A stretch of 64,000 bases of DNA, from assembly GCF_056712565.1 (NCBI RefSeq), contig NZ_CM160072.1. One strand, written 5' to 3'. How positions within the stretch are numbered: the stretch's first letter is position 1; every line of letters starts with the position of its first letter. Below are positions 35,882-41,852 of the stretch, piece by piece. Below the pieces are notes generated by a model, which saw only the letters and a list, made by a program, of their open reading frames with translations, did no database searches and had not been told where the DNA came from. Position numbers and translations under genes: made by a program.

Positions 35882-36735
35882 GCACCATCCTGAAATGGGC
35901 GGGAAATAAAACCGCCATTATGTCCGAACTGAAAAAGCATCTTCCTGCTGGCCCGCGACTGGTTGAACCTTTCGCGGGTTCCTGTGCAGTGATGATGGAG
36001 ACGGAGTACCCCAGCTATCTTGTTGCGGATATTAATCCTGATTTAATCAACCTCTATAAAAAGGTTGCTGCTGATTGTGAATCGTTTATATCTCGCGCCA
36101 GAGTTTTATTTGAGATCGCAAACAGGGAGGTGGCTTATTACAACATAAGGAAGGAGTTTAATTACTCAACTGAAATTACTGATTTCATGAAAGCGGTATA
36201 TTTCCTGTATCTCAATCGTCACGGTTACCGTGGTTTATGTCGCTATAACAAGAGCGGGCATTTCAACATTCCCTACGGCAATTATAAAAATCCGTATTTC
36301 CCTGAAAAAGAAATTCGCGCATTTGCAGAAAAAGCCCAGCGAGCAACGTTTATCTGCGCCAGCTTTGATGAAACGCTGGCGATGTTGAAGGCGGGGGATG
36401 TGGTGTATTGCGATCCACCGTATGACGGTACGTTTTCCGGCTATCACACTGACGGCTTCACTGAAGATGACCAGTATCACCTGGCATCTGTTCTTGAACA
36501 TCGGTCATCAGAAGGACATCCGGTCATTGTTTCTAACAGTGACACATCCCTGATCCGTTCGCTGTATCGCAATTTTACTCACCACTATATCAAGGTAAAA
36601 CGCATCATCGGTGTGGCAGCTGGCGAGGGTAAATCAGCAACAGAAATCATTGCTGTTTCCGGGCCGCGCTGCTGGGTGGGATTTGATTATTCGCGTGGCG
36701 TGGATAGTTCTGCCGTGTACGGAGTACGTGCATGA
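35878..36735 (+). CDS. Dam-like DNA adenine methyltransferase (orphan)
   Basis: 285 aa; LKWAGNK N-terminus, FAGS AdoMet motif, DPPY catalytic motif; start overlaps the TraR-like stop (ATGA). Confidence 0.9.
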
Positions 36736-39146
36736 GCCATGCCGATATGAACAACTGCTGCGGCTTTAACGAGGCTGCCGCAGCGTTCTCATGGAACAGC
36801 CCGAAAAAGGCCATTAACCCTTATCTGGACCCGGCGGAAGTTGCGCCGGTTTCTGCGCTTTCAAACCTGATCACTCTGTACGCTGCCGATAACGAGCAGG
36901 AACAGTTGCGCCGCGAGGCACTGAGTGATCAGGTCTGGGAGCGTTATTTTTTTAATGAATCACGTGATCCTGTCCAGCACGAAATGGAGCAGGATAAGCT
37001 CATTAGCCGGGCAAAGCTGGCGCATGAGCAGCAGCGTTTTAATCCGGATATGGTCATTCTGGCGGACGTCAACGCCCAGCCTTCCCATATCAGCAAGCCG
37101 CTGATGCAACGTATTGAATACTTCAGCAGCCTGGGCAGGCCAAAGGCTTATTCCCGCTATTTACGTGAGACGATTAAGCCATGTCTGGAACGACTGGAGC
37201 ATGTACGCGACAGCCAGCTATCTGCATCTTTTCGTTTTATGGCAAGCCATGTAGGGCTGGACGGCCTGCTGATTCTGCCTGAAATGAGTCAGGATCAGGT
37301 GAAACGCCTGTCTACCCTTGTCGCTGCGCATATGAGCATGTGCCTTGATGCAGCTTGTGGTGATTTGTATGCCACCGATGACGTTAAGCCAGAAGAAATC
37401 CGCAAGACATGGGAAAAGGTGGCAGCGGAAACCCTGCGTCTGGATGTCATCCCGCCTGCGTTTGAGCAACTCCGTCGGAAAAGAAACCGCCGTAAACCCG
37501 TGCCCTATGAACTCATTCCGGGTTCGCTGGCGCGTATGTTGTGCGCCGACTGGTGGTACCGGAAATTATGGAAAATGCGTTGCGAATGGCGGGAAGAGCA
37601 GTTGCGTGCTGTCTGCCTGGTCAGCAAAAAAGCATCTCCCTATGTCAGCTATGAAGCCGTGATGCATAAACGTGAGCAGCGCCGCAAGTCACTGGAGTTT
37701 TTCCGTTCTCATGAACTGGTGAACGAAGAGGGCGACACGCTGGATATGGAAGACGTGGTAAACGCCAGCAGCAGCAACCCGGCGCACCGCCGCAATGAGA
37801 TGATGGCCTGTGTTAAAGGTCTGGAGCTTATCGCGGAAATGCGCGGTGACTGCGCCGTTTTCTACACCATTACCTGTCCGTCACGTTTCCATTCCACGCT
37901 CAATAACGGCAGACCAAACCCAACCTGGACAAATGCGACGGTAAGACAAAGCAGCGATTATCTGGTCGGCATGTTTGCTGCATTTCGTAAGGCGATGCAC
38001 AAAGCCGGGTTGCGCTGGTATGGCGTGCGGGTGGCTGAGCCGCATCATGACGGTACAGTTCACTGGCACCTGTTGTGTTTTATGCGCAAAAAAGACCGCC
38101 GCGCCATTACTGCATTGTTGCGTAAGTTTGCCATCCGTGAAGACCGCGAGGAACTGGGTAATAACACTGGTCCACGCTTTAAATCTGAGCTGATAAACCC
38201 GCGCAAAGGAACGCCGACAAGCTACATCGCGAAATACATCAGTAAGAACATTGACGGGCGTGGTCTGGCTGGCGAGATCAGCAAGGAAACGGGTAAATCC
38301 CTGCGTGATAACGCTGAATACGTTAATGCCTGGGCGTCTCTGCATCGTGTTCAGCAATTCCGCTTCTTTGGTATTCCAGGGCGTCAGGCTTACCGTGAAC
38401 TGCGGTTGTTGGCTGGTCAGGCGGCAAGGCAGCAGGGTGACAAAAAAGCAGGTGCGCCGGTACTGGATAACCCGCGCCTTGATGCCATCCTGGCTGCTGC
38501 TGATGCTGGCTGTTTTGCCACCTACATTATGAGGCAGGGCGGCGTGCTGGTTCCTCGCAAATATCACTTGATCAGAACCGCTTATGAAATCAATGAAGAG
38601 CCGACCGCCTATGGCGATCACGGTATTCGTATTTATGGCATCTGGTCACCCATTGCAGAAGGCAAGATCTGCACTCATGCAGTGAAGTGGAAAATGGTTC
38701 GTAAAGCCGTTGACGTTCAGGAGGCGGCAGCCGACCAGGGCGCTTGCGCCCCTTGGACTCGTGGCAATAACTGTCCCCTTGCTGAAAATTTGAACCAACA
38801 AGGGAAAGACAAATCAGCTGATGGGGATACCAGGACGGACATTACCCGCATGGATGACAAGGAGTTGCACGATTACCTGCACAGTATGAGCAAAAAAGAG
38901 CGCCGGGAACTGGCTGCAAGGTTACGCCTGGTGAAACCGAAACGGCGTAAAGACTACAAACAGCGAATTATAGACCATCAGCGACAGCAGCTCGTCTATG
39001 AACTGAAGTCCAGAGGATTTAATGGCAGCGAGAAAGAGGTCGATTTACTCCTTCGCGGCGGCAGTATTCCGTCAGGAGCAGGCCTGCGTATCTTCTATCG
39101 GAACCAGCGTTTGCAGGAAGATGATAAGTGGCGAAACCTGTATTAA
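36732..39146 (+). CDS. A: replication initiation endonuclease (P2 gpA / 186 A family)
   Basis: 804 aa; HWHLLCF motif and tyrosine-rich active region (YIAKYISK). Confidence 0.88.
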
Positions 39147-39299: not shown

Positions 39300-39488
39300 A
39301 TGCAGGACTATTTTTTGGAGTCTTTGAAGCTCCAGCGCATTGATTTTTTTCTTAAGCTTGTAGCGGCTAGTGAGTGTAGTGATGAAGAGAAGGGGCTGGC
39401 TTTGCAGTGGGTTTCTGAACTGACAGATGAACTCATGGCAAAAATCAGAACCCACGAATACAACCGCTCAATGGATGTCATCAGCTGA
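39300..39488 (+). CDS. small SOS-operon protein (possible Tum-like antirepressor fragment)
   Basis: 62 aa; GGAGG RBS; directly downstream of the LexA box and upstream of the dinI-like gene. Confidence 0.4.
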   Translation: MQDYFLESLKLQRIDFFLKLVAASECSDEEKGLALQWVSELTDELMAKIRTHEYNRSMDVIS

Positions 39489-39498
39489 GGTGACCTTT

Positions 39499-39732
39499 AT
39501 GCGCATTGAAATAATGATCGATAAAGAGCAGAAGATTAGCCAGTCTACCCTGGACGCCCTTGAATCCGAGCTTTACCGCAATCTGCGCCCCCTGTATCCC
39601 AAAACGGTAATTCGCATCCGCAAAGGTAGCTCTAACGGTGTGGAACTGACCGGACTGCAACTGGACGAAGAAAGAAAACAAGTGATGAAGATTATGCAGA
39701 AGGTGTGGGAAGACGACAGCTGGCTGCATTAA
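39499..39732 (+). CDS. DinI-family protein
   Basis: 77 aa; MRIEIMIDKEQ...VWEDDSWLH resembles DinI (MRIEVTI...); GAGGTGA RBS. Confidence 0.75.
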   Translation: MRIEIMIDKEQKISQSTLDALESELYRNLRPLYPKTVIRIRKGSSNGVELTGLQLDEERKQVMKIMQKVWEDDSWLH

Positions 39733-39891
39733 GAAAAGTTGCTGGCGTCTGAACTTGGTTCTGGCGTCAGCAAGGTTGAACAACGAGTACAGTGAGGCGT
39801 TAGGTGTGGCGTTTATTTGATGAGTGAACGCCCGTTCTGCGATAGGTTCGGAGATTAAGGTTGAAACTACGGGCAAAATACCATCTTTTTC

Positions 39892-40317
39892 CTACTTAAT
39901 TGAGTCCAGTAACAAGTTACAGTTACTCTCATTGTAGAGAGAACGAGCAATTAGTGTTACCTGCTTTCCATTCATTCCCGGCTTATCCCATAACACAGCT
40001 TCTTGCGACGCCACAAATTCAGCATAATCAATTATGCGTTGTTCGTGATCTGGTTCCTCATAGCCAAAGTATGAGAGCGCATCGTTGTAAGCGTGGTAAG
40101 CTGCTTTCTGTAATATCTTGATATCGGCTGTAGGTACTTGCTCCGTGTAGCTAGGATCTAATTGTGTGCTACTGCCATAGAATGCACATGAAAGGTAAGA
40201 TATTGATTTCTGTTGAGCTTTAGTTCCTTTCTCATAGTTTTTAGCTGTTACCGCCTGAACAGGGACGCTAACAAAGCTTGCAACCAGAATTAAAATTAAT
40301 ACGTAAAAGCTTTTCAT
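39892..40317 (-). CDS. secreted protein of unknown function (cargo)
   Basis: 141 aa; signal peptide MKSFYVLILILVASFVSVPVQA; lower-GC segment; opposite strand to flanking phage genes. Confidence 0.6.
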   Translation of the reverse strand: MKSFYVLILILVASFVSVPVQAVTAKNYEKGTKAQQKSISYLSCAFYGSSTQLDPSYTEQVPTADIKILQKAAYHAYNDALSYFGYEEPDHEQRIIDYAEFVASQEAVLWDKPGMNGKQVTLIARSLYNESNCNLLLDSIK

Positions 40318-40587
40318 TTTGACCTCAGCCGAAACGTTAGAGAGACTATCGAAATTTGTAAAACCCGTGGCGATTCAGTTTGAGATCCTCCCCCTTACAT
40401 GATTTTTAATCAAATATATGCTTTTGTAAGCATACCTGTTAACCGAATTATTTATTTTTAGAGATCTTCCGACATACTGATTATGCCCGCTGAGGAGTTC
40501 ACCTTGCGTAAAGTCCGATTCGCTTTACTCGTCTGTGCATGTCTATGCTGCATGAGATTGCATGATCGTTTGAGGATCGTTTTTGCT

Positions 40588-40617
40588 AAGGCCCGCCAGA
40601 ACTGGCGGGCTTTTGCG
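40588..40617 (+). terminator. rho-independent terminator
   Basis: GCCCGCCAG-aact-GGCGGGC followed by TTTTG. Confidence 0.5.
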
Positions 40618-40659
40618 TAGATCATGCTCCTGCATGAAAACCACTACATAAAGCGGGCA

Positions 40660-40678
40660 GGCGTGGCGGGGATACGAG
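40660..40678. other. cos-like site (P2/186-type cohesive end sequence)
   Basis: GGCGTGGCGGGGATACGAG; first 13 nt identical to the 186 cohesive end (GGCGTGGCGGGGAAAGCAT) as recalled from the literature. Confidence 0.45.
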
Positions 40679-40692
40679 CGCGCGCTTGCACC

Positions 40693-40721
40693 TTGATATT
40701 CACGGTTTGGTTAAGTATTGT
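40693..40721 (+). promoter_or_regulatory. putative sigma70 promoter for the protease operon
   Basis: TTGATA-N17-TATTGT about 40 bp upstream of the protease start. Confidence 0.3.
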
Positions 40722-40761
40722 CTTAGTCAGAGTCCATAACATATTACAGAATGGAGTTGTT

Positions 40762-41409
40762 ATGATTGGTCCTGAATATGTCGTAGTTGTTGGCGTGCTT
40801 AATGCAGGTTTGGTTAGTTTTTTAGGAACAGGTTTTTTTATTTCTAAGGATAAAATAATTACTTCCCGCCATGTTATTAATGGGTTTTCTTCTAACTTAG
40901 TTATTTCTCCATCTAATATAAATAACTTTAATAGTTATCAGGATACAAGTGTTGATAAATTTCAATGTATTGGAGTTGATGTTATTGATGAAGATCCAAT
41001 AAAAGACTTATGTGTGTTAAAAATTAAAAATGCACCTGTTTATGAACCTTGCCTAAAAATTGCTACTCTTGACGATGTTAATGTCGGTGAAGATGTGGGT
41101 ATTTTAGGTTTCCCACATTGTAATGAAAATAGAAAAGTATTGACATTTCAAACGGCAAAAATAGGTGCAAAAGTTTTACTTTCAAGCAGTAATATTCAAT
41201 CTAAACATGCCGTTATAAATATCCAAACCAGACCTGGTCAATCGGGATCGATTGTATTTAATTTAAAAAATGACTCGGTAATAGGCGTCTTGGTTGGCGC
41301 TTATGCAAATAATTCTGGAGGTTCTGTTTTGGTTGGAGGTATTAATCCAGCTGAACTACATCAGACAACTTATGCGGTTTCTGCAGAATATGTTAAGGAT
41401 ATGTTATGA
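40762..41409 (+). CDS. trypsin-like (S1/chymotrypsin-fold) serine protease, stand-alone domain
   Basis: 216 aa from MIGPEYVVVVG... (GGAG RBS); candidate triad His in GTGFFISKDKIITSRHV, Asp in DLCVLKI, Ser in RPGQSGSIVF; about 30% GC. Confidence 0.75.
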   Translation: MIGPEYVVVVGVLNAGLVSFLGTGFFISKDKIITSRHVINGFSSNLVISPSNINNFNSYQDTSVDKFQCIGVDVIDEDPIKDLCVLKIKNAPVYEPCLKIATLDDVNVGEDVGILGFPHCNENRKVLTFQTAKIGAKVLLSSSNIQSKHAVINIQTRPGQSGSIVFNLKNDSVIGVLVGAYANNSGGSVLVGGINPAELHQTTYAVSAEYVKDML

Positions 41410-41852
41410 TTGCTATACCAAATGAAGATGCTGAGTCTTGGTTGTCCACTTTAAAAACGTATCAATCTTCATCTGTCAGGAATTTTCTCGAAAATGGCGA
41501 TGAAGAAAAGGCTCTTGAGCTATGGCTAACTGCATCTGGCCCAAGTTCAGTTGCTCAATTTGGCGGTGATAATTCAAAAATGCCGGGAAGAAAAGCGTTT
41601 GTTGAGCAGTTTAAATTAGAGTTTAAGGCTTTTGTATGTGGAGGTGATAAATATGCAGAGGAGAGGGAATGTTTAGGAGCACTGACTGGTGATGTTAAAA
41701 CATACTTTGTAGGGGTGATCTCTTCGGCAATTGCGGGTTCTTTGGGGGCAACAGCAACATTTATTGCTCCAGCTGTAGTAATTATGTTGATAGCTGTCTC
41801 AAAAATGGGAATTAATGCTTGGTGTTCATTAGAGACAACGACAGAATCTTAG
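41406..41852 (+). CDS. small tail-anchored membrane protein, partner of the protease
   Basis: 148 aa; start overlaps protease stop (ATGA); C-terminal Gly/Ala-rich hydrophobic helix YFVGVISSAIAGSLGATATFIAPAVVIMLIAVS; AT-rich. Confidence 0.6.
   Translation: MIAIPNEDAESWLSTLKTYQSSSVRNFLENGDEEKALELWLTASGPSSVAQFGGDNSKMPGRKAFVEQFKLEFKAFVCGGDKYAEERECLGALTGDVKTYFVGVISSAIAGSLGATATFIAPAVVIMLIAVSKMGINAWCSLETTTES

Follow-up and report, generated by a model that had tools for sequence, protein, structure and literature searches.

What does a small and apparently exported protein do for a P2-like prophage, or for the bacterium carrying it, when its gene sits in leftward orientation after the early replication operon and before cos? 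The question is raised by a 141-aa gene found in a stretch of 64,000 nucleotides (hereafter the window) of contig NZ_CM160072.1, NCBI RefSeq assembly GCF_056712565.1. The first-pass annotation of this DNA had proposed that the product, taken to be periplasmic and encoded in a variable prophage locus, acts in superinfection exclusion, as an inhibitor of a lysozyme or toxin, or as a host-interaction factor. The analysis described here favours, tentatively and with a probability of about 0.4, a lysogen-expressed periplasmic binder that would protect the envelope, most likely via superinfection exclusion. The existence of one more uncharacterised accessory gene in the cos-proximal hotspot of P2 is unsurprising to the specialist, and the gene is of interest only if its product is an envelope-level exclusion factor. 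The hotspot is known already, as is the protein, which appears unremarked in published arrangement tables. New are the characterization of the family to which it belongs, the position of the gene with respect to cos, its lack of dependence on the neighbouring PDC-M35 genes, the finding of orthologues in different accessory slots of unrelated prophages and the remnant of a partner gene at 40318-40424.

The open reading frame, which starts with ATG and corresponds to the hypothetical protein WP_000834899.1 in RefSeq, is a real gene under purifying selection. Identical copies are annotated in E. coli SF-468 and in many further strains (RefSeq), and the pairwise dN/dS values among four orthologues from different contexts (0.14-0.26) show that it is protein-coding and selectively constrained. 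In composition and orientation it stands apart from its surroundings, as had been remarked from the sequence at the outset, although the remark on composition has to be narrowed. The GC content of the gene (40.4%) and of the inserted module to which it belongs (40.6%) is indeed lower than that of core phage genes such as A (52.9%) and the portal gene Q (50.5%), or of the window (50.5%), but not lower than that of the right-hand neighbour, PDC-M35 (35.9%). The gene is the only one on the minus strand from the repressor region to cos; the leftward genes Q and P, further right, belong to the late region.

The prophage in the window is P2-like, with the gene order cI, cII-like, Fil, DUF5347, DUF2732, TraR-like, Dam and A (36732-39146), followed by a 62-aa open reading frame (39300-39488), a DinI-like gene (39499-39732) and the leftward 141-aa gene, beyond which lie the genes for an S1 protease and a 148-aa protein and, then, the leftward genes for portal Q and terminase P. 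At the end of the early operon (39300-39732, plus strand), the 62-aa protein (phrog_698, function unknown) and the DinI-like protein (PF06183, E 1e-22) replace orf91 of P2. The alignment with an empty-site prophage (L004) is conserved up to about position 39804 and again from 40535, and it delimits the insertion that brought the gene. The conserved block around cos is present in about one-quarter of the complete E. coli genomes, and the gene in about 2% (100 of 5,426, always at 99% identity or more), or about 8% of those with the cos block. The locus is, thus, a variable one, as first supposed: the presence/absence indel, its frequency, the empty-site alignment and the position in the cos-proximal hotspot all agree. 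Indeed, the cos-proximal region of P2-like phages is a documented variable anti-phage hotspot (Rousset et al. 2022, PMC9122126). In the P2-like prophage of E. coli FDAARGOS_1248 (L003, 4771-5828) the same pre-cos slot is filled by a pair of genes read rightward (71 and 280 aa), neither of which matches PADLOC, so that the pre-cos slot varies independently of the post-cos slot.

The approximately 125 bp that precede the cohesive end (from 40535) align with the right end of P2, and the sequence GGCGTGGCGGGGATACGAG aligns to the P2 cohesive ends; therefore, cos separates the 141-aa gene from the protease pair. The 141-aa gene thus closes the packaged genome on the right, and the protease pair is the first cargo at its left end. 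The variable cargo on the right of cos begins no more than about 8 bp past the cohesive-end sequence. The features of the locus are collected in table 1.

Table 1. Features of the 141-aa gene and of its surroundings (positions in the window; strand left empty where none is assigned).
Feature	Position	Strand	Evidence
CDS of the 141-aa secreted protein (WP_000834899.1; phrog_7437)	39892..40317	-	ORF, RefSeq, phrog_7437 match, dN/dS
Sec-type signal peptide, codons 1-22, predicted cleavage between VQA and VT, without lipobox	40252..40317	-	sequence; n/h/c-region features kept in 16/16 members
Mature 119-aa domain, predicted five-helix bundle	39895..40251	-	AF2 on 15-sequence alignment
Shine-Dalgarno GAGG, 5 nt before the ATG	40323..40326	-	direct sequence reading
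Putative proximal promoter-like element TTTACA-17 nt-TAACGT	40334..40362	-	invariant columns, alignment A4
Putative distal sigma-70-like promoter TTAACA-18 nt-TATATT, 10/12 matches	40413..40442	-	promoter scan
Decayed 3' remnant of the 215-aa 2-TM partner gene, in-frame stops	40318..40424	-	blastn, tblastn, alignment A4
Hairpin shared with the empty-site prophage, 3' of the DinI-like gene	39739..39773		fold energies; kept in empty-site prophage
Inserted module of 730 bp (gene, upstream remnant, promoters), missing from empty-site P2-like prophages	39805..40534		alignment with L004; two-piece matches
Conserved cos block, right slot boundary (context)	40535..40686		~1,280-1,320/5,426 E. coli genomes; aligns to P2 right end
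Cohesive-end sequence GGCGTGGCGGGGATACGAG (context)	40660..40678	+	aligns to annotated P2 cosR/cosL GGCGAGGCGGGGAAAGCAC
PDC-M35A (S1 protease, 40762-41409) and PDC-M35B (1-TM protein, 41406-41852), not part of the feature	40762..41852	+	PADLOC E 8e-94, 4e-58

As for expression, the proximal promoter-like element is kept upstream of the orthologues in 4/4 unrelated contexts; its match to the -10 consensus is weak, and the promoter scan made no call there. Promoter-like sites in the region number four, with 4.8 expected from shuffled sequences, and the promoter predictions for the gene, being no better than chance, are weakly supported. Downstream, the hairpin of table 1 has a predicted energy of -21.0 kcal/mol on the plus strand (z -4.2) and of -11.4 kcal/mol on the minus strand (z -1.7); on the latter it is weak but followed by CUUUUCUU, a U-run, and could serve the 141-aa gene as a terminator. 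A canonical, strong intrinsic terminator of the plus strand (about 40588-40617, -24 kcal/mol) lies just before cos.

The protein is very probably exported to the periplasm, as predicted from its N-terminus (MKSFYVLILILVASFVSVPVQA, followed by VT), which combines a lysine at position 2, an uncharged hydrophobic run of 18 residues and valine and alanine at positions -3 and -1. The call is based on rule-based features and on conservation within the family: the features are those of a type I signal peptide, and the N-terminus is kept in 16/16 members, in agreement with the Sec signal peptide that had been noticed at first reading. No lipobox was found when the protein was searched for one, and its first cysteine, residue 44, lies past the predicted type I site. 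The mature parts of the 16 members of the phrog_7437 family are acidic (pI 4.5-5.9) and devoid of hydrophobic segments of transmembrane grade, the maximal mean Kyte-Doolittle value over 19 residues being 0.35 in the mature 141-aa protein and at most 1.05 across the family. A periplasmic product, as the first-pass annotation had it, is therefore what a Sec-type signal peptide without a lipobox, and a mature part without a membrane anchor, would predict.

The structure prediction that had been suggested as a check returned a confident model of the mature domain, built on a 15-sequence alignment (AF2, pLDDT 94.8, pTM 0.87), in which residues 3-31, 41-61, 69-88, 98-108 and 111-118 are predicted to form a bundle of five helices; with the signal peptide retained the model is mediocre (pLDDT 76). 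Five residues are invariant in the family, namely C22, W88, Y106, N110 and C111 in the numbering of the mature protein. C22 and C111 correspond to C44 and C133 of the precursor, which has no other cysteines, just the two counted initially; in the model, C22 is found within helix 1 and C111 starts helix 5, and a C44-C133 disulfide is plausible. A helix-loop patch, DYAEFVASQEAVLWDKPGMN, is also conserved. No catalytic motif was recognized in the protein, and a search with the predicted bundle retrieved generic helical matches only, with no specific structural relative among them.

Homology searches place the protein in a tiny family. Along its full length (residues 1-141 against profile positions 1-141 of 141) it matches phrog_7437 of PHROGs v4 (E 4.3e-99), a profile that carries no functional annotation there, so that membership is uninformative on function. 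The protein matched no profile of Pfam, NCBIfam or PADLOC, 15 members of the family matched none of Pfam, and a PDB profile search with the family gave zero matches at E up to 10. No match was obtained by tblastn in 50,697 sequenced phage records, with the 141-aa protein and the phage-plasmid homologue as queries, and no relatives in a GTDB scan of 100,044 species-representative genomes. A word-indexed search of 5.8 billion proteins yielded seven related clusters, and about 14 true relatives, 126-168 aa long, came from an exhaustive HMM search across 1.84 billion representatives, all of them from Enterobacterales (Klebsiella, Hafnia, Enterobacter, Siccibacter, Rahnella, Scandinavium and Salmonella). 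The family is, thus, confined to Enterobacterales prophages and phage-like plasmids, and no homology to a housekeeping periplasmic protein, which had been named at the outset as a finding that would speak against a phage-related role, came to light. Known exclusion proteins, lysozyme inhibitors and immunity proteins showed no sequence or fold similarity to the 141-aa protein. WP_000834899 is mentioned in no paper text found in the literature and is absent from the supplements of a 2026 P2/P4 preprint; it occurs in the gene arrangement lists in the supplement of Rousset et al. 2022 (PMC9122126), and no entry for it as a curated system was found in the accessible part of Table S5B of the same work.

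The plasmid-borne members are distant from the E. coli sequence. They have 27-32% identity to it and are found on twelve IncFIB plasmids, all non-mobilisable and 105-230 kb in size; in both of the two whose flanks were inspected the family member is a lone opposite-strand gene. On IncFIB plasmids of 106-113 kb from E. coli and Citrobacter (L013 and L014) the member (27-31% identity) is flanked by a DUF4942 gene on one side and by small hypothetical genes on the other, with the genes for a phage N-6-adenine methyltransferase and a LprI-family lysozyme inhibitor nearby. The methyltransferase in the flanks is a hint that these plasmids are phage-plasmids.

The distribution of the gene among hosts bears on whether it serves the bacterium in ways that have nothing to do with phages. 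Exact copies are found in blood, urinary and avian pathogenic isolates, prophage ends are the classic position for morons, and the LprI-family inhibitor is found near the distant members on the phage-like IncFIB plasmids, all of which would fit a host-fitness or virulence conversion factor aiding ExPEC/APEC lysogens, for example through resistance to host lysozyme, complement or antimicrobial peptides, or through stress buffering. However, the gene comes from a wide mixture of hosts and sources (human, poultry, swine, cattle, wastewater and food), and the cargo of the flanking slots is overwhelmingly of the defence type. Furthermore, the profiles or folds of Ivy, MliC/PliC, PliG and LprI/DUF1311 were not matched by the protein, nor was similarity to the Bor and Lom families seen, and a conversion factor of this kind is considered rather unlikely.

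The nearest cargo of the defence type is the PDC-M35 pair, formed by a S1/trypsin-like protease of 215 aa and by a 148-aa protein with one C-terminal transmembrane helix, which fills the slot between cos and the portal gene Q. In Rousset et al. 2022 (PMC9122126) this pair is given as the two-gene 'system #93', with 35 occurrences. A 261-aa open reading frame starting at 40624 was rejected as the protease gene because it is an artefact running across cos, the true start being the ATG at 40762; its 46 artefactual N-terminal residues (40624-40761) gave a spurious match to phrog_28685. With PDC-M35A within 450 bp of the 141-aa gene in the window, and both of low GC content, the secreted protein might be taken for a third component of this candidate defence system of protease and transmembrane protein. 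Such a membership is contradicted by the co-occurrence data and is judged highly improbable: of the 100 E. coli genomes that have the 141-aa gene, no more than 12 carry PDC-M35, and in its place at least 22 different cargos fill the post-cos slot at the 37 loci with a gene copy of at least 90% identity, one slot being empty. These cargos include KAP NTPase-, DprA-plus-PRTase-, reverse-transcriptase- and HipA-like proteins, labels that come from reading the open reading frames by eye, and an AIPR-domain protein whose match to the AbiU profile of PADLOC supports its assignment. In addition, cos and the strong plus-strand terminator split the gene from the pair, which places them at opposite ends of the packaged genome, and Rousset et al. 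describe the system as one of two genes (PMC9122126). In the arrangement table of the same work, WP_000834899 is listed with HIRAN, DUF262/DUF1524 and Trypsin_2 cargos. The 141-aa gene is, therefore, independent of PDC-M35.

The gene is also found well beyond this one slot. A 90% orthologue in Klebsiella aerogenes and other species occupies the same pre-cos slot of P2-like prophages, with varied cargo alongside, whilst a 77% orthologue in Hafnia alvei lies in a P2-like late region, between the tail genes S and V, and a second 77% orthologue closes a lambdoid prophage, past the tail spike and adjoining bacterial trp genes. The orthologues at 77-90% identity thus fill three accessory slots, and about 50-130 nt of upstream sequence moves along with them. 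More distant members are met beside an integrase at the eco-mqo locus of Klebsiella, in small early-gene runs and on a ParA/ParG element. As these comparisons show, the gene moves between accessory slots of unrelated temperate phages, and its distribution over slots is the behaviour expected of an autonomous moron.

Some of these placements could point to the lytic cycle. Between S and V, the Hafnia orthologue has the same direction as the late genes. Several distant members are co-directional within the early-gene runs of lambdoid-like prophages, a placement that may reflect a role in lytic growth and not in lysogens. Accordingly, the protein could be a periplasmic factor of the phage's own life cycle, made in lytic growth and acting, for example, in lysis timing, in preventing the re-adsorption of virions to lysing cells or in wall modification before release. 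Nevertheless, the gene is missing from about 92% of related P2-like prophages, and is hence dispensable, none of the 50,697 sequenced phage records contains a member of the family, and in the window the gene opposes the early operon and apparently has upstream signals of its own (putative). A life-cycle function is, on these grounds, quite improbable.

In two lineages the gene has a companion. In Hafnia, the gene for a 215-aa protein lies directly 5' of that for the secreted protein, and in K. aerogenes and Scandinavium a gene for a 219-aa protein precedes that for a secreted protein with about 32% identity to the query. With 29% identity (E 3e-18), the 215-aa and the 219-aa protein are homologues of each other, and partner and secreted protein have remained linked while both diverged to about 30% identity. 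The partners feature two N-terminal transmembrane helices with a positively charged connecting loop and, because of this loop, their C-terminal domain of 160 aa probably faces the periplasm. In E. coli only a trace of the companion is left. By blastn, 40318-40424 aligns with the 3' end of the Hafnia partner gene (74% identity over 107 nt, E 3e-15), and by tblastn the remnant matches residues 190-215 of the partner, as a decayed form of its last 28 codons. The P2-like modules of E. coli and Klebsiella therefore descend from a two-gene unit of which the secreted half was kept; the descent of the 141-aa gene from a pair with a 2-TM protein is shown by these alignments. The possibility that the secreted protein and the C-terminal domain of the partner are paralogues was considered and rejected (hhalign probability 0.3%).

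The partner family itself gave no informative match against Pfam, PDB and PADLOC. In the Hafnia alvei P2-like prophage (L019, 4333-6640, between S and V) the 2-TM partner and the 77% orthologue are accompanied by a 338-aa PDC-S11 candidate defence gene (E 8e-110). In Enterobacter chromosomes (L059-L064, 5001-7443) the 219-aa partner family is found without the secreted protein, convergent with a HEPN_LA2681 gene, and in some Enterobacter strains SIR2_2 and DUF4225 genes lie near the partner, in a neighbourhood that resembles a defence island.

An ancestral pairing with a 2-TM protein of which only a stub persists upstream of the E. coli gene is the pattern expected of an orphan immunity gene. 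The protein would then be an inhibitor of a toxin acting in the periplasm, retained in E. coli after loss of the toxin gene, and candidate toxins would be T6SS amidases, colicin- or pesticin-like muramidases and the periplasmic domain of the former 2-TM partner. Yet the similarity to T6SS immunity proteins of the Tai4/Rap type is slight: Tai4 ranks 16th among hundreds of generic helical structure matches, below many unrelated helical proteins and with 5% identity to the 141-aa protein. No effector gene was seen near family members, nor T6SS, colicin or lysis genes, in any context inspected; the partner has no match to a toxin domain; and its presence alone in Enterobacter would be odd for a toxin without its immunity gene. 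An orphan immunity protein or inhibitor is, therefore, a doubtful reading, if one to be kept in mind.

Superinfection exclusion is favoured over these explanations because of the slot, of defence-type neighbours in three independent contexts and of the lack of a catalytic signature. Defence-type genes are found not only in the cos-proximal slots, but also beside the Hafnia pair (PDC-S11) and beside the lone partner in Enterobacter (HEPN and SIR2). For a defence role, however, guilt by association in a hotspot counts for little, and only about one-third of the hotspot systems cloned by Rousset et al. (PMC9122126) were active against their panel.

The slot itself offers the closest parallel, since the 141-aa gene shares both position and orientation with the old-tin exclusion operon of P2. 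The P2 operon, annotated as lysogenic conversion, runs leftward from starts about 150 bp to the left of cosR; here, too, a leftward gene (39892-40317) is found between the end of the early replication operon, where the DinI-like gene stops at 39732, and cos (40660-40678), that is, in the TO region. Both old-tin and the 141-aa gene are non-essential, variably present inserts of low GC content and foreign origin. According to the P2 annotation, Old is an AAA family ATPase/exonuclease that blocks lambda and Tin blocks the growth of T-even phages. The likeness ends with the products, as the 141-aa protein, unlike Old and Tin, has an export signal and no enzymatic motif, and is not related to them in sequence. 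Both Old and Tin act in the cytoplasm.

For a protein predicted to work in the periplasm, other comparisons can be made as well. Spackle of T4 (Sp, gp61.3) is a periplasmic superinfection-exclusion protein that inhibits the tail lysozyme gp5. Like Spackle, the 141-aa protein is small, phage-encoded, provided with a signal peptide, mostly helical and, as predicted, periplasmic, and both are thought to be stoichiometric inhibitors, in the case of the 141-aa protein by inference from its features. Cor of phi80 and N15 and Llp of T5 are, instead, lipoproteins that exclude phages by masking FhuA. With them the 141-aa protein would share being a phage-encoded envelope protein specified by an accessory gene, and Cor and Llp block the entry of other phages; however, it has no lipobox, and its first cysteine, as mentioned above, comes after the type I site.

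Taken together, the gene may be regarded as a self-contained lysogenic-conversion moron of a P2-like prophage, inserted at the far right of the phage chromosome, past the early operon and before cos. It would be transcribed leftward, as is old-tin, presumably in the lysogen, and the product would be exported by Sec, cleaved after Ala22 and folded in the periplasm as a soluble, acidic five-helix bundle of 119 aa with two invariant cysteines. Since there is no catalytic motif and a patch is conserved, the mature protein may be seen as a stoichiometric binder or blocker in the envelope. Most likely it would shield the lysogen by shutting out superinfecting phages once they have adsorbed, e.g. by blocking a tail-associated component for wall degradation or DNA ejection, or a host envelope factor that such a component needs. 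In origin, the gene was the downstream half of a two-gene unit with an inner-membrane protein of two transmembrane helices, the C-terminal domain of which is predicted to be periplasmic; because E. coli keeps only a stub of the partner, the secreted protein must be useful alone. A bolder version, unlikely but worth stating, is that the secreted protein and its ancestral 2-TM partner are an unrecognised two-component periplasmic system that stops infection at, or just after, genome ejection, with the secreted half being sufficient in P2-like coliphages.

To our knowledge, nearly all the cargo described in cos-proximal positions of P2 and P4 is cytoplasmic, being made up of nucleases, ATPases, reverse transcriptases and abortive-infection effectors, and we know of few defence mechanisms at the level of the envelope. 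A small exported protein in the position of old and tin would, on the contrary, act at the envelope. A bacterial defence system that blocks the entry of phage DNA in the periplasm has been described recently (PMC13128918). With a mature protein of 119 aa, a confident model and empty-site prophages as natural knock-outs, the proposal is cheap to test. Without a phage phenotype, the 141-aa gene would be one more uncharacterised moron, present in about 2% of complete E. coli genomes; if the bolder version is true, the secreted protein and its former partner would represent a new kind of envelope-level exclusion module, passed between the accessory slots of temperate phages.
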